Below are positions 3,083 through 63,589 of a DNA stretch of 64,000 nt, one piece after another. The notes beneath the pieces are model-generated. The model ran no database searches. It was given only the letters and a program-made list of their open reading frames with translations, and had not been told where the DNA came from. Source of the DNA: Escherichia coli (GTDB taxonomy: Bacteria; Pseudomonadota; Gammaproteobacteria; Enterobacterales; Enterobacteriaceae); the NCBI RefSeq assembly GCF_036507355.1, contig NZ_AP027877.1, one strand, 5' to 3'. The position numbers and the translations under genes were made by a program. Position 1 is the first letter of the stretch. Each line of letters opens with the position of its first letter.

Positions 3083-3807
3083 TGATTACCCTGAAAAATG
3101 TTTCAAAATGGTATGGTCACTTTCAGGTGCTGACCGACTGCTCAACCGAAGTGAAAAAAGGCGAAGTGGTGGTGGTTTGCGGCCCGTCTGGTTCCGGCAA
3201 ATCAACGCTGATTAAAACCGTCAACGGCCTCGAACCGGTGCAGCAAGGTGAAATCACCGTCGATGGTATCGTGGTTAACGACAAGAAAACCGATCTGGCA
3301 AAGCTGCGTTCCCGCGTCGGGATGGTATTCCAGCATTTCGAGCTGTTCCCTCATCTGTCGATTATCGAAAACCTGACCCTGGCGCAGGTGAAAGTGCTTA
3401 AACGCGATAAAGCACCCGCTCGTGAAAAAGCATTGAAATTGCTGGAGCGCGTGGGACTTTCCGCACATGCCAATAAATTTCCGGCACAGCTTTCCGGCGG
3501 TCAGCAGCAGCGTGTGGCGATCGCTCGCGCATTGTGTATGGATCCTATTGCCATGCTGTTCGACGAACCGACATCGGCGCTGGATCCGGAGATGATCAAC
3601 GAAGTGCTGGACGTAATGGTCGAACTGGCGAATGAAGGAATGACCATGATGGTGGTGACCCACGAAATGGGCTTTGCCCGTAAAGTGGCGAATCGGGTGA
3701 TCTTTATGGATGAGGGTAAAATTGTCGAAGACTCGCCGAAAGATGCGTTCTTCGATGATCCGAAATCGGACCGCGCAAAAGACTTCCTCGCGAAAATCCT
3801 GCATTAA
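3082..3807 (+). CDS. gltL: glutamate/aspartate ABC transporter ATP-binding protein
   Basis: 241 aa; Walker [13 protein letters not shown] signature LSGGQQQR, Walker [12 protein letters not shown]. Confidence 0.95.
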
Positions 3808-3924
3808 TCACTCTGGCGCGCATCCCCAAGTGCGCGCCATCTCACGCTTTATCGTTTCGCCCCTCGTATCTGTTACATCCTGGCGTTACCCTTGCCGCAA
3901 AGAAGCACACAACAAGGAGCAACA

Positions 3925-43428: not shown

Positions 43429-44235
43429 ATGAAAGCATTCTGGCGTAACGCCGCGTTGCTCGCGGTTTCTCTGCTTCCCTTCTCTTCTGCCAACGCCGTA
43501 GCGTTGCAGGCAAAACAGTATGGCGATTTTGATCGCTATGTCCTGGCCCTCTCCTGGCAAACCGGATTTTGCCAGAGTCAACACGATCGAAATCGTAACG
43601 AACGAGATGAATGTCGCCTGCAAACCGAAACGACCAACAAAGCTGATTTTCTGACCGTACATGGTCTGTGGCCAGGATTGCCTAAATCGGTCGCTGCCCG
43701 TGGTGTTGATGAACGCCGCTGGATGCGCTTCGGTTGCGCTACTCGCCCAATCCCGAATCTACCAGAAGCGCGCGCCAGCCGGATGTGTTCATCGCCGGAA
43801 ACCGGATTATCACTGGAAACGGCCGCTAAACTAAGTGAAGTCATGCCAGGAGCTGGCGGACGTTCCTGCCTGGAACGCTACGAATATGCCAAACACGGTG
43901 CCTGCTTTGGTTTTGATCCGGACGCATACTTCGGTACGATGGTACGCCTGAATCAAGAAATTAAAGAGAGCGAAGCCGGAAAATTCCTTGCGGATAATTA
44001 CGGTAAAACAGTGAGCCGCCGTGACTTTGACGCCGCCTTTGCCAAAAGCTGGGGAAAAGAGAACGTGAAAGCAGTTAAGCTAACGTGCCAGGGTAACCCT
44101 GCGTATTTGACTGAAATGCAGATCTCGATCAAAGCTGACGCCATCAACGCTCCGCTTTCTGCCAACTCATTCTTGCCACAACCACACCCAGGCAACTGTG
44201 GCAAAACCTTTGTGATTGATAAAGCGGGTTATTAA
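43429..44235 (+). CDS. rna: periplasmic ribonuclease I (RNase T2 family)
   Basis: ORF 43411..44235 trimmed to MKAFWRNAALLAVSLLPFSSANA signal peptide; 268 aa. Confidence 0.9.
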   Translation: MKAFWRNAALLAVSLLPFSSANAVALQAKQYGDFDRYVLALSWQTGFCQSQHDRNRNERDECRLQTETTNKADFLTVHGLWPGLPKSVAARGVDERRWMRFGCATRPIPNLPEARASRMCSSPETGLSLETAAKLSEVMPGAGGRSCLERYEYAKHGACFGFDPDAYFGTMVRLNQEIKESEAGKFLADNYGKTVSRRDFDAAFAKSWGKENVKAVKLTCQGNPAYLTEMQISIKADAINAPLSANSFLPQPHPGNCGKTFVIDKAGY

Positions 44236-44383
44236 TCATCTGATTTACAAAACACGCTAATTTGTCTTCCATAAACCAAGGCGATTAAGATTTATACATA
44301 ATGCGCTGCATTGAGGAATTCCCTGAATGTGACGCAAATCACTTCAAAGAGTGAGCAACAGTCAGTATCATCATGTGAGTTAA

Positions 44384-44417
44384 ACCCTCGCCGCCTGACG
44401 GTGAGGGTTTTCTTTTG
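44384..44417 (+). terminator. hairpin in rna-rnk intergenic region
   Basis: aaccctcgccgcctgacggtgagggttttcttttg. Confidence 0.4.
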
Positions 44418-44464
44418 GGTATGTTTATCTGCGACACTCGCAGTACCGACGACATGGAGTAAAA

Positions 44465-44875
44465 ATGTCCAGACCAACTATCATCATTAACGACCTGGAT
44501 GCCGAACGCATCGATATTCTGCTGGAGCAACCCGCCTATGCTGGTTTGCCAATCGCCGACGCGTTAAACGCAGAGTTGGATCGCGCCCAAATGTGTTCGC
44601 CAGAAGAGATGCCACACGACGTGGTGACAATGAACAGCCGGGTTAAATTCCGCAATCTTAGCGATGGCGAAGTGCGTGTGCGCACGTTGGTGTATCCGGC
44701 AAAAATGACCGATAGCAATACTCAGCTTTCCGTTATGGCTCCGGTAGGTGCCGCACTGCTGGGGCTGCGCGTTGGCGATTCCATTCACTGGGAACTTCCG
44801 GGCGGCGTTGCAACCCACCTTGAAGTGCTGGAACTCGAATACCAGCCAGAAGCTGCTGGCGACTATCTGCTTTAA
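44465..44875 (+). CDS. rnk: regulator of nucleoside diphosphate kinase (GreA/GreB-like)
   Basis: 136 aa [23 protein letters not shown]. Confidence 0.88.
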
Positions 44876-54838: not shown

Positions 54839-55927
54839 ATGCCTCACAATCCTATCCGCGTGGTCGTCGGCCCGGCTAACTACTTTTCACATCCAGGAAG
54901 TTTCAATCACCTGCACGATTTTTTCACTGATGAACAACTTTCTCGCGCGGTGTGGATCTACGGCGAACGCGCCATTGCTGCGGCGCAAACCAAACTTCCG
55001 CCAGCGTTTGGACTTCCAGGGGCAAAGCATATTTTGTTTCGTGGTCATTGCAGCGAAAGCGATGTACAGCAACTGGCGGCTGAGTCCGATGACGATCGCA
55101 GCGTGGTGATTGGCGTCGGCGGCGGCGCACTACTCGACACCGCGAAAGCCCTCGCCCGCCGTCTCGGTCTGCCATTTGTTGCCGCTCCAACGATCGCCGC
55201 CACCTGCGCCGCCTGGACACCGCTCTCCGTCTGGTATAACGATGCCGGACAGGCGCTGCATTATGAGATTTTCGACGACGCCAATTTTATGGTGCTGGTG
55301 GAACCAGAGATTATCCTCAATGCGCCGCAACAATATCTGCTGGCGGGGATCGGTGACACGCTGGCGAAATGGTATGAAGCGGTGGTGCTGGCTCCGCAAC
55401 CAGAAACGTTGCCGCTAACCGTGCGACTGGGGATCAATAATGCGCAGGCCATTCGCGACGTCTTGTTAAACAGTAGCGAACAGGCGCTGAGCGATCAGCA
55501 AAATCAACAGTTAACGCAATCATTTTGCGATGTGGTGGATGCTATTATTGCTGGTGGTGGGATGGTCGGTGGTCTGGGCGATCGTTTTACGCGTGTGGCG
55601 GCGGCTCATGCCGTGCATAACGGTCTGACCGTGCTGCCGCAAACCGAGAAGTTTCTTCACGGCACCAAAGTCGCCTACGGAATTCTGGTGCAAAGCGCCT
55701 TGCTGGGTCAGGATGATGTTCTGGCGCAATTAACTGGAGCGTATCAGCGTTTTCATCTGCCGACTACGCTGGCGGAGCTGGAAGTGGATATCAATAATCA
55801 GGCGGAGATCGACAAAGTGATTGCCCACACCTTGCGCCCGGTGGAGTCCATTCATTACCTGCCAGTCACGCTGACACCAGATACGTTGCGTGCAGCGTTC
55901 GAAAAAGTGGAATCGTTTAAAGCCTGA
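54839..55927 (+). CDS. ybdH: iron-containing alcohol/hydroxycarboxylate dehydrogenase (glycerol dehydrogenase-like)
   Basis: 362 aa; GVGGGALLDTAKA nucleotide-binding motif. Confidence 0.88.
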   Translation: MPHNPIRVVVGPANYFSHPGSFNHLHDFFTDEQLSRAVWIYGERAIAAAQTKLPPAFGLPGAKHILFRGHCSESDVQQLAAESDDDRSVVIGVGGGALLDTAKALARRLGLPFVAAPTIAATCAAWTPLSVWYNDAGQALHYEIFDDANFMVLVEPEIILNAPQQYLLAGIGDTLAKWYEAVVLAPQPETLPLTVRLGINNAQAIRDVLLNSSEQALSDQQNQQLTQSFCDVVDAIIAGGGMVGGLGDRFTRVAAAHAVHNGLTVLPQTEKFLHGTKVAYGILVQSALLGQDDVLAQLTGAYQRFHLPTTLAELEVDINNQAEIDKVIAHTLRPVESIHYLPVTLTPDTLRAAFEKVESFKA

Positions 55928-55936
55928 CGTGCAAAT

Positions 55937-56134
55937 TTAGCAGCAGCGCGCGCCGCCTTTTCCACCGTAGCGCGCGTCCTGCCGCTCACGGAAAAACTCT
56001 TCGTAGGTCATCGGCGTTTGATCGGGATGGTTAACCCGCATATGTTCGACATAGTTGTCGTAATCAGGCATACCAATCATCAGTTTCGCCGCCTGACCTA
56101 AATATTTTCCGGCTTTTGCCAGTGAATCAAACAT
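55937..56134 (-). CDS. ybdD: DUF466 small protein downstream of cstA
   Basis: 65 aa [33 protein letters not shown]. Confidence 0.85.
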
Positions 56135-56286
56135 CAATACCTCCGGTAAACAGGTTGCTGAGAGAGTGCATTAATAGCTATCAACGCGCTCGGTCAGTCC
56201 CCTCGCCCCATCGAGGAGAGGGTTAGGGTGAGGGGGAACCCTCGGCACTATGCCAACATTCGCCAACATCCCCCCTCACTCTGACT

Positions 56287-58392
56287 TTAGTGCGCGCCTT
56301 TCGCCTGCGCTACGATCTCCTCAACATTTTCCGGCATCGGCTCATACGGCGTTTCTTTCGCCGTTGGCTTCGGCTCTTTCAATGCCGCAAGTGCCGTCTT
56401 AATCGAGAACAGTGCCAGAACCACCACGACCACCATAAAGAAGATGGTTAACCCGGCATCCAGACGGTTGTTGAACACCAGTTGCGCCAGCTGTGACTCA
56501 GTATACTGCGACGGAATATTGCCGCTGTCGATCATTGCCTGGAACTTGTTAGCAATGGCCAGGAAGCCGACTTTCGCATCCGGGCTAAACGCTTTCTGCC
56601 AGCCAGCGGTCAGGGTACAAATCAGCAGCCAGGCCGTTGGTACCAGCGCCACCCAGGCGTAACGTTGACGTTTCATTTTGAACAGCACCACGGCACAGAG
56701 CATCAGCGCCATCCCTGCCAGCATCTGGTTGGCAATACCAAACAGCGGCCACAGAGTGTTAATACCGCCCAGCGGATCGACCACACCCTGATGGAGGAAG
56801 TAGCCCCACGCCAGTACGCACAGCGCCGTTGCCAGCAGGTTAGCAGGCAGTGAATCGGTCCGCTTCAGGCCAGGAGACACCACGCCCAGCAGATCCTGCA
56901 ACATAAAGCGCGCAGCACGCGTACCCGCATCTACCGCCGTCAGAATAAACAGAGCTTCAAACAGAATGGCGAAGTGATACCAGAACGCTACATCCATCAT
57001 ACCACCCAGCGCACCGTGCAGGATGTAAGCCATCCCCACCGCCAACGTCGGCGCACCGCCCGCACGGGAAATGATCGACTGTTCACCCACTTCGCTGGCA
57101 ATCTGGTTGAGCGTATCTGGTGTAATGCTAAAGCCCCAGCTACTCACCACCTGCGCGGCAGAAGCGACCACATCCGCCGTCCCTGCCGGAGCCAGCACCG
57201 CCATTGGGCTGTTCATGGCAAAGTAAACGCCCGGATCGATGATACAGGCGGAAACCAGCGCCATAATCGCCACGAAGGATTCCATTAACATTCCACCGTA
57301 GCCGATAAAGCACGCCTGCCCTTCGTTCGCCAGCATCTTCGGCGTGGTGCCGGAAGAGATCAGCGCATGGAAGCCAGACACCGCACCACAGGCGATGGTG
57401 ATAAACAGGAACGGGAACAGGTTACCGGTCCATACCGGGCCAGTGCCATCGACAAATTTGGTCAGCGCAGGCATGGTCAGCGTCGGACGCATAATCAAAA
57501 TGCCTACCGCCAGACCGACGATAGTCCCGATTTTCAGGAAGGTAGAGAGGTAGTCACGCGGGGCCAGCAGTAACCACACCGGCAGCACCGCCGCCACAAA
57601 ACCGTAGCCCACCAGCATCCAGGTCAGCTGCACGCCGGTAAAGTCAAAGTACGGTGCCCAGGTCGGGCTTTCTGCCACCCAGCCGCCAGAGATAATGGCA
57701 AAAATCAGGAACACCAGGCCAATCACTGACACTTCGCCAATACGCCCCGGACGCAGATAGCGCAGGTAGATCCCCATAAACAGCGCCAGCGGAATGGTGA
57801 ACGCAACGGTATACGTTCCCCACGGGCTATGAGTCAGGGCTTTCACCACGATCATCGCCAGCACAGCAAGGATAATGACCATGATCATAAAGCAGGCCAC
57901 CAGCGCGATCACCCCGGCGGTTGGCCCCATCTCTTCTTTGACCAGCTCACCCAGCGAGCGACCGTCACGGCGCGTAGAAACAAACAGCACCATGAAATCC
58001 TGCACCGCACCGGCGAGAACCACCCCGGCGAGCAGCCAGATCATCCCCGGCAGGTAGCCCATTTGTGCTGCCAGCACCGGCCCCACCAGCGGCCCTGCTC
58101 CGGCAATGGCCGCAAAATGGTGACCGAACAGCACTTTCTTGTCCGTCGGCACATAGTCCAGCCCGTCGTTATGCCGCACCGCTGGCGTCATACGCGTCGG
58201 GTCAACCGCCAGCACATTTTTGGCGATATACAGACCATAAAAACGGTAAGCGATCAGATAGATACAGACCGACGCCACCACAATCCACAGTGCGTTGATC
58301 TGTTCCCCACGATTTAAAGCAATGTATCCCAGAGCAAATGCTCCCATTACAGAGAGCACTGTCCAGACGAGGTATTTCCCTGATTTGTTCAT
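56287..58392 (-). CDS. cstA: carbon starvation protein A (peptide/pyruvate transporter family)
   Basis: 701 aa polytopic membrane protein. Confidence 0.92.
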   Translation of the reverse strand: MNKSGKYLVWTVLSVMGAFALGYIALNRGEQINALWIVVASVCIYLIAYRFYGLYIAKNVLAVDPTRMTPAVRHNDGLDYVPTDKKVLFGHHFAAIAGAGPLVGPVLAAQMGYLPGMIWLLAGVVLAGAVQDFMVLFVSTRRDGRSLGELVKEEMGPTAGVIALVACFMIMVIILAVLAMIVVKALTHSPWGTYTVAFTIPLALFMGIYLRYLRPGRIGEVSVIGLVFLIFAIISGGWVAESPTWAPYFDFTGVQLTWMLVGYGFVAAVLPVWLLLAPRDYLSTFLKIGTIVGLAVGILIMRPTLTMPALTKFVDGTGPVWTGNLFPFLFITIACGAVSGFHALISSGTTPKMLANEGQACFIGYGGMLMESFVAIMALVSACIIDPGVYFAMNSPMAVLAPAGTADVVASAAQVVSSWGFSITPDTLNQIASEVGEQSIISRAGGAPTLAVGMAYILHGALGGMMDVAFWYHFAILFEALFILTAVDAGTRAARFMLQDLLGVVSPGLKRTDSLPANLLATALCVLAWGYFLHQGVVDPLGGINTLWPLFGIANQMLAGMALMLCAVVLFKMKRQRYAWVALVPTAWLLICTLTAGWQKAFSPDAKVGFLAIANKFQAMIDSGNIPSQYTESQLAQLVFNNRLDAGLTIFFMVVVVVLALFSIKTALAALKEPKPTAKETPYEPMPENVEEIVAQAKGAH

Positions 58393-63449: not shown

Positions 63450-63589
63450 ATTTTCGGTCGCTAACCTAAAAGCAAACGCGCACTATGTCAACTCTTGAGG
63501 TAACGCAATCTGCAACTCGGGGTTGCATCTGGTTGTGGTTACAATGAAAATGAGAAGCATTAACTTCATTAATAACAGGAAGCTGATTT

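Follow-up and report, generated by a model that had tools for sequence, protein, structure and literature searches.

The spacer between cstA and ybdD in Escherichia coli contains several mutually complementary G/C-rich arms. Do these arms form a regulatory signal that serves the two genes, or do they belong to a repeat element that happens to lie between them? An earlier note, made from the letters of the sequence, left both readings standing: a terminator/attenuator that separates cstA from ybdD expression, or a small dispersed repeat family. The DNA analyzed is a 64-kb stretch of an E. coli genome, here termed the window, and positions refer to it unless stated otherwise. The multi-hairpin structure is very probably a slightly decayed copy of the known enterobacterial BoxC repeat, present as a passenger and not as an operon-specific regulator.

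The cstA–ybdD spacer

Features of the locus and of related loci are shown in Table 1. In K-12, the alignment gives an orthologous spacer of 182 bp. A 501-bp segment around the locus (positions 55900–56400) is matched at 99% identity or more in only three of 5426 E. coli genomes, most of the others being at 95%–99%; thus the window comes from an uncommon E. coli lineage at the cstA–ybdD locus.

The arms described in the earlier note are present as quoted, i.e. GAGGGTT (positions 56218–56224) with AACCCTC (positions 56237–56243), and GGGTGAGGGGG (positions 56226–56236) with CCCCCTCAC (positions 56271–56279). A further pair consists of CCCCTCGCCC at positions 56199–56208 and GGGTGAGGGG at positions 56226–56235. 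A repeat search displays the three pairs of arms as inverted pairs I2 (15 nt, 87%), I3 (16 nt, 75%) and I4 (10 nt, 90%).

RNA folding, which the note had proposed as a check, shows the spacer to be more stable than shuffled sequence, with z about -3 to -4. The 152 nt of the mRNA-sense strand give -64.8 kcal/mol (z = -3.16 relative to shuffles), and the + strand gives -58.6 kcal/mol (z = -3.74). DNA structure was predicted by nearest-neighbour hairpin folding; the 100-nt core has a z of about -2.1 on either strand.

Table 1. Positions of the cstA–ybdD element and its parts, alleles of the locus, the rna–rnk hairpin, and DUF559 loci that carry BoxC-like elements (L numbers denote retrieved stretches).
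Feature	Position	Strand	Basis or remark
cstA–ybdD intergenic spacer	56135–56286		152 bp; open reading frame list and matching E. coli genome annotation
ybdD	55937–56134	-	Spacer ends exactly at the gene
cstA	56287–58392	-	Other border of the spacer
ybdD start codon (56132–56134) and GGAGG Shine-Dalgarno (56140–56144)	56132–56144	-	Alignment with annotated K-12 ybdD
Imperfect palindrome including the BoxC left flank	56158–56197		Inverted pair I1; repeat search and allele alignments
Extended BoxC element: left flank (..GCGCTCGGTCAGT), three-block core, start of right spacer	56184–56254	+	nhmmer
Left flank ..GCGCTCGGTCAGT	56186–56198	+	Line-up of K-12 copies
Block 1 CCCCTCGCCCC, 'A mm' type (G in pyrimidine block)	56199–56209	+	Table 1 of PMC4666352
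Block 2 GAGGAGAGGG, canonical GGGGAGAGGG	56213–56222	+	Allele alignment
Block 3 GGGTGAGGGGG, after type-A loop TTA (56223–56225)	56226–56236	+	Line-up of K-12 copies
Family spacer AACCCTCGGCACTATGCCAACAT.., beginning AAC..GCAC..	56237–56269	+	Comparison with K-12 doublets
10-nt tandem duplication GCCAACATTC/GCCAACATCC, inside the BoxC spacer	56252–56271	+	Repeat search and allele alignment
Stub CCCCCCTCAC, first block only of a second, inverted copy	56270–56279	+	Folds pair the stub with 56226–56236
Allele of ETEC4069 and SCU-301			Intact core
Allele of the window			Core with G-to-A change in block 2
Allele of K-12			Block 3 mutated and REP unit inserted
Allele of E302			Core lost from block 1 through most of block 2, loop 1 included
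Allele of Nord1			REP unit adjoining a remnant
Intrinsic-terminator-like hairpin 3′ of rna	44382–44420	+	12-bp stem 44382–44410, 5-nt loop, then TTTTCTTTT
K-12 ycjD–fabI with BoxC-like elements	L002 4150–4761		Retrieved stretch
Other DUF559 loci with BoxC-like elements	L045 6969–7451; L064 1393–1779; L136–L149; L150–L165; L180–L187

Relationship of the element to the BoxC repeat

Holder et al. (2015; PMC4666352) equate the BoxC repeat of the 1990s with the PIT (potential intrastrand triplex) element of Maher's group and with the TMECO triplex motif, and tabulate 23 K-12 TMECO copies with exactly the three-block core described here. Kaplan et al. (2016; PMC5100583) treat the same sequences as HPG1/HPG2 G-quadruplex-hairpin motifs. 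Entry no. 19 of the HPG1 table in the latter paper gives, in successive columns, cstA >>> 51, 632058, - and 108 >>> ybdD. Thus the orthologous K-12 copy is already published, and the cstA–ybdD element is already known, down to the locus. The K-12 copy at this locus is not among the 23 TMECOs of Holder et al. (PMC4666352), and its block 3 is mutated (GGGTGAGAGGG). The K-12 annotation displays no repeat feature at the cstA–ybdD locus.

The BoxC core is defined as CCCTC[G/T]CCC(C), a loop, GGG(G)AGAGGG, TTA or CCG, and GGGTGAGGG(G). Positions 56199–56236 of the window read CCCCTCGCCCC-ATC-GAGGAGAGGG-TTA-GGGTGAGGGGG, which differs from the core in Table 1 of PMC4666352 by one substitution, in block 2. 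An nhmmer profile was made from 13 other K-12 copies, with the cstA–ybdD locus left out; it matches window positions 56184–56254 over profile positions 2–72 with E = 6.8e-17 (56.6 bits). With the 91-nt element as query, blastn gives matches in 5416 of 5426 complete E. coli genomes, at 1–31 places per genome (median 17). The suggestion of a small dispersed repeat family was thus right, as shown by the profile match, the copy number and the published K-12 orthologue (PMC5100583). All K-12 copies that were fetched are intergenic, and the window copy, between cstA and ybdD, is likewise.

In K-12 the core GTCCCCTCGCCCC-N3-G(G/A)GGAGAGGGTTAGGGTGAGGGG has a nearly identical counterpart upstream of fabI. 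A location downstream of fabI/envM was also considered; BoxC is absent there, the K-12 copy being upstream of fabI. No further BoxC copies were found in the 64-kb window with up to three mismatches allowed. An Rfam search of positions 55500–57000 with E up to 10 yielded only sub-threshold eukaryotic chance matches, e.g. mir-423 (26 bits, with a threshold of 71).

Structure of the copy

The family core consists of three mutually complementary G/C blocks, CCCCTCGCCCC, GGGGAGAGGG and GGGTGAGGGG. Either block 2 or block 3 can serve as pairing partner of block 1, and the stub CCCCCCTCAC can pair with block 3; the helices block 1–block 2/block 3 and block 3–stub are those of the predicted folds. The three complementary blocks, together with a conserved spacer and the inverted stub, account for the multi-hairpin appearance of the locus and for every arm that had been quoted.

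When the K-12 copies are lined up side by side, the unit that they share extends beyond the 36-nt core. At five K-12 loci the core is followed by a spacer and then by a second copy, of type B, which is inverted. The window spacer (positions 56237–56269) is homologous to the spacer that parts the inverted copies in the K-12 fepB–entC, ygfF–gcvP and alx–sstT doublets, and the window spacer plus CCCCCCTCAC line up with the spacer plus inverted type-B copy of these doublets. The stub is 7 nt from the cstA stop codon and the remainder of the inverted copy is missing. Since only the first block of the inverted type-B copy is left, the cstA–ybdD locus represents a truncated BoxC doublet.

The G-rich strand of BoxC is the + strand of the window, which is the template strand for cstA/ybdD; thus the cstA/ybdD mRNA carries the C-rich version.

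A second BoxC locus differs between the window and K-12. Gap-tolerant pairwise alignment of the fepB–entC spacer shows that the window, at positions 63562/63563, is without the 186-bp BoxC doublet of K-12 (TMECO nos. 7 and 8). The K-12 insert has TAA at both ends and the window has a single TAA. The TAA pair could be a 3-bp target duplication, or it could be due to chance.

Variation and decay at the locus

The G-to-A change at position 56214 is specific to the window allele, and the allele alignment shows that it removes the first G3 tract of block 2. Canonical G-quadruplex motifs were searched for with a regular expression of four G3 tracts and loops of 1–7 nt, as the HPG1 definition requires. 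None is found in the whole 64-kb window, and the same expression detects the motif in the K-12, ETEC4069 and SCU-301 alleles. The DNA fold of the window allele is -19.1 kcal/mol versus -23.1 kcal/mol for the intact allele.

The cstA–ybdD region is covered over at least 80% of its length in 4230 of 5419 E. coli genomes, the remainder covering about 65%. About 78% of E. coli genomes keep the BoxC core at this locus and about 22% are without it. The core-less allele displays a degenerate remnant and no clean empty site. In E302, the one core-less genome examined, cstA and ybdD are in place. The 10-nt unit GCCAACATTC is found once in ETEC4069, twice in the window and in K-12, and three times in SCU-301.

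A REP (PU) unit of 29 nt is inserted at about positions 56168/56169 in K-12 and Nord1, within the palindrome to the left of BoxC. This insertion is absent from the window and from many other strains, and a REP/BIME PU consensus such as GCCGGATGCGGCGTGAACGCCTTATCCGGCCTAC is absent from the window spacer.

The copy is thus evolutionarily unstable at this locus, the strains differing in point mutations within the blocks, in whether the core is kept, in REP insertion and in having one to three copies of the 10-nt unit. The disabling changes differ between lineages, which looks like relaxed constraint, and on this ground the copy is read as a passenger.

The same variation bears on the proposal that the element is a functional DNA switch, whose hairpin, triplex or G-quadruplex modulates transcription, replication or recombination at cstA–ybdD. 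Triplex formation in vitro (PMC4666352) and G-quadruplex/hairpin switching by CD (PMC5100583) have been described, and Kaplan et al. argue for a regulatory structural switch in the family (PMC5100583). The CD/NMR data on triplex or G-quadruplex, however, refer to the consensus sequence (PMC4666352, PMC5100583), and in the window the first G3 tract is mutated and the canonical G-quadruplex motif is gone. TM loci are reportedly more variable between strains (PMC4666352) and the cstA–ybdD locus is variable too, but the disabling mutations differ from allele to allele. In addition, an in vivo DMS footprint gave no support for a stable triplex, and the sequence behaved as a duplex when double-stranded (PMC4666352). 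A DNA switch at this locus is therefore considered improbable, and the preferred reading is still that of a decayed repeat.

Regulator of cstA/ybdD or passenger

A scan of positions 55900–56500 reveals no terminator-like consensus on either strand and no promoter-like consensus, and no U run follows any of the hairpins of the cstA–ybdD element. These two results leave a terminator/attenuator role without support. An earlier study found no promoter or terminator activity in the PIT/BoxC family, as related by Holder et al. (PMC4666352). With the family reportedly inactive as promoter or terminator and about 22% of genomes core-less at the site, the terminator/attenuator half of the original suggestion is not sustained.

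Both cstA and ybdD are needed for pyruvate uptake (PMC5847655). Because the spacer has no such signals and both genes serve this one process, the two are probably co-transcribed. The element would be transcribed as the C-rich strand inside this probable co-transcript, where stable hairpins may form and where terminator features are absent; from the sequence, neither 3′ ends nor processing would be expected at the element.

A broader form of the regulatory proposal is that the element is a structured RNA, i.e. a terminator, attenuator or processing/stability element, which sets the ybdD:cstA expression ratio. It is in keeping with the stable mRNA-sense fold (-64.8 kcal/mol, z = -3.16), with the intercistronic location between two genes that cooperate in pyruvate uptake (PMC5847655), and with the retention of the element in most E. 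coli genomes. However, no hairpin has a U-tract and the consensus scan gives no terminator-like site; promoter and terminator activity of PIT/BoxC is reported absent (PMC4666352); members of the family occur in both orientations and among genes of every arrangement; and the core is lacking from about 22% of genomes at the site, with no match to an Rfam family. There is little likelihood, then, that a structured RNA sets the ratio of the two gene products. The strong mRNA-sense fold could nevertheless have an effect on mRNA decay or on ybdD translation.

The BoxC copy appears to be a DNA-level dispersed repeat that was not built as a regulator for the cstA–ybdD operon. It is most likely a passenger, whose influence on mRNA structure would be modest at most. 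As a decaying and dispensable copy, it should not be annotated as a cstA–ybdD regulator.

The hairpin between rna and rnk

The earlier note also pointed to a similar hairpin between rna and rnk and suggested that it is related to the cstA–ybdD element. The hairpin is real: CCCTCGCC (positions 44385–44392) and GGTGAGGG (positions 44400–44407) lie within a 12-bp stem. It is situated between the rna stop (position 44235) and the rnk start (position 44465), 147 nt after the former and 55 nt before the latter. The fold gives -21.3 kcal/mol (z = -4.57), and the pattern CCCTCGCC-N3-12-GGTGAGGG occurs in none of 100 shuffles of the window. The G/C-rich stem is followed by TCTTTTGGGT on the same strand as rna, and the site is identical in K-12. 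Judged by its sequence features, the rna–rnk hairpin is an ordinary rho-independent terminator.

One may consider that the hairpin (positions 44382–44410) is a derived BoxC copy that has lost block 2 but shares the ancestry of the cstA–ybdD element. Both 8-mers match blocks 1 and 3 exactly, the G-T position included; apart from the cstA–ybdD element itself, nothing in the 64-kb window scores higher with the BoxC profile, and the hairpin is one of only three pyrimidine/purine (Y/R) hairpins detected there. The profile match is nevertheless not significant (2.7 bits, E = 4.7), the flanks are dissimilar to those of BoxC, and the site, unchanged in K-12, fits an ordinary rho-independent terminator in every feature. 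Kinship is thus statistically unsupported, and common ancestry with BoxC is unlikely. Because of the non-significant E-value and the dissimilar flanks, the rna–rnk hairpin is not filed as BoxC.

BoxC-like elements in other bacteria

BoxC-type elements have been found in more than 260 genomes, with no link to transposons, phages or plasmids (PMC4666352). An exact scan with AGAGGGTTAGGGTGAGGG, using one genome per species, yielded at least 120 stretches, often with many copies per genome. Among the matches listed are Pseudomonas, Boseaceae, Bradyrhizobium, Polaromonas, Deltaproteobacteria, Verrucomicrobia, Elusimicrobia and others. In Pseudomonas sp. dw_612 the resemblance of the copies to those of E. 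coli extends to the left flank, CTCGGTCAGTCCCCTCGCCCC.

In Pseudomonas the 40-nt core is found at one end of longer, genome-specific repeats (stretches L065–L097 in Pseudomonas sp. dw_612, and also L099–L122). One example is TTTCAGGTCGATGTAGCTC.AAGAACACCTCGGTCAG plus the core; an example from a second Pseudomonas genome is GTGCCGGCTGACGC..TGGTTTCATCCTGCACCGAACGGT plus the core. Some Pseudomonas copies adjoin TGTAGGAGC(G/A)AGCTTGCTCGCGAA, which is REP-like in appearance. From their sequences, the longer Pseudomonas repeats look like MITE-like families formed around the core.

DUF559 (YcjD-family) genes beside the repeats

In Enterobacteriaceae and in many other bacteria, DUF559 genes have BoxC-like elements on both sides or are joined to one at the 3′ end. 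One example is present in K-12, where the fabI-adjacent copy lies a short way downstream of ycjD, which is a Vsr-like gene of the DUF559 family (PF04480). The ycjD open reading frame runs into a collapsed type-B repeat, where it ends in ...RRSPSP and a stop codon. Relative to its Enterobacter counterpart, this K-12 repeat is short of 12 nt, which were lost from between two direct CCCTC repeats. The collapsed repeat is followed by a duplicated piece of the ycjD 3′ end, which translates to ENMETVLENIRQGLNR, and then by a degenerate type-A repeat (L002 4290–4420).

A tblastn search with YcjD against 120 repeat-centered loci detected only three DUF559 genes, all within 60 nt of the repeat. Thus most repeat copies are gene-less. 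The first of the three genes comes from an AT-rich rumen genome and lies between perfect inverted repeats of 53 nt, in which the motif is included; the second is directly downstream of the motif. In the third, the repeat and DUF559 form a module in frame in priA, just before the Walker A motif. This module is from the uncultured bacterium O72_L2 bin.42 (L033, around positions 3465–3855) and reads ..KITPHPNPLPQGERK..DUF559..GKTILLHGVTASGKTE. Its position is intein-like; nothing resembling a splicing domain was seen.

TM-centered sampling being uninformative, sampling was then centered on DUF559 genes. Among the best 120 YcjD homologues, the protein stops exactly at ...PSP in 70, and enterobacterial members typically have ...LPSPRPSP before the stop. 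The type-B repeat, when read on its C strand, encodes this ending and places the stop codon in loop 1. In Enterobacter, Klebsiella and Phytobacter a type-B repeat comes after the DUF559 gene, then a spacer of about 35–170 nt and then a type-A repeat. The neighboring genes differ by genus, which indicates that the DUF559 gene has moved.

Homologues without the TM-encoded tail also carry the elements: three of three from gut contigs of 34% GC have three-block elements on both sides. In IMG/VR, all 16 bona fide DUF559 loci (13 independent ones after removal of near-duplicates) have three-block elements adjoining the gene. No TM-like flanks were found at nine distant phage DUF559-like homologues (E-values 5e-6 to 1e-4); thus the association holds for bona fide DUF559 and not for every Vsr-like phage nuclease. 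The block sequences of the flanking elements are lineage-specific, e.g. CCTCCCC/GGGGAGG/GGGTGGGGG and CCCCCC/GGGGGG/GGGGGG, and they co-vary with the lineage of the DUF559 gene.

The density of pyrimidine/purine hairpins was determined with a relaxed Y/R hairpin detector, as a perfect 7-bp detector misses the 'mm' type. Within 150 nt of 19 independent DUF559 genes there are 5.09 hairpins per kb, compared with 0.32 per kb over the remainder of these loci (binomial p = 6e-20), and 16 of the 19 genes are positive.

Possible partnership of BoxC and DUF559

DUF559 is a very large family. It is annotated as 'unknown function' in Pfam and NCBIfam, and 3HRL, the nearest structure that has been solved, bears only the name 'endonuclease-like protein'. 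To our knowledge, BoxC/PIT/TMECO has no known origin, partner protein or spreading mechanism.

We tentatively propose that the BoxC/TM repeats may be the cognate repeats of DUF559 nuclease genes, in the manner of REP/REPIN with RAYT, and not structural motifs that stand free of any gene, a reading that falls somewhat short of even probability. Doublets and singlets that have no gene, the cstA–ybdD copy among them, would then be non-autonomous derivatives or targets. The coupling is proposed because of the ...PSPRPSP-stop endings, the inverted TM-like repeats at DUF559 genes elsewhere and the in-frame TM plus DUF559 module in priA. The DUF559 protein would recognize, cut or mobilize the repeats, or home into them. 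If true, the partnership would explain why a near-identical 40-nt element is present in many copies across phyla, and it would give DUF559 a function. It also provides a testable hypothesis, namely binding or cutting of the folded repeat by YcjD. No paper linking DUF559/ycjD to BoxC/TMECO was found in the searchable literature, which covers few subscription-journal papers; as a lead, the link may be new. The cstA–ybdD finding itself changes very little, and the DUF559 association is the part worth following.

Comparison with known systems

The element in the window has in common with BoxC/PIT/TMECO/HPG1 the type A core, the TTA loop, the 'mm' variant with a G in block 1, the conserved flanks, the intergenic location and the dispersed, multi-copy occurrence. 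It differs in the G-to-A change in block 2 and in its inverted doublet partner, which is a 10-nt stub. With intrinsic terminators the cstA–ybdD element shares stable hairpins, but it is without the U-tract and falls outside this class. The rna–rnk hairpin, with a G/C-rich 12-bp stem, a 5-nt loop and a U-tract, shares these characters with rho-independent terminators.

BoxC resembles REP/BIME and REPIN-RAYT in that all are short, structured, intergenic and dispersed palindromic repeats, often present as inverted doublets; the REP/BIME sequences, however, are unrelated to BoxC. By analogy with REPIN-RAYT, a single-copy nuclease gene, here DUF559, is found beside its repeats, and it is flanked by the repeat associated with it. 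RAYT is a tyrosine/HUH transposase of the IS200/IS605 type. DUF559, in contrast to this transposase, is a putative nuclease with a Vsr-like PD-(D/E)XK fold.
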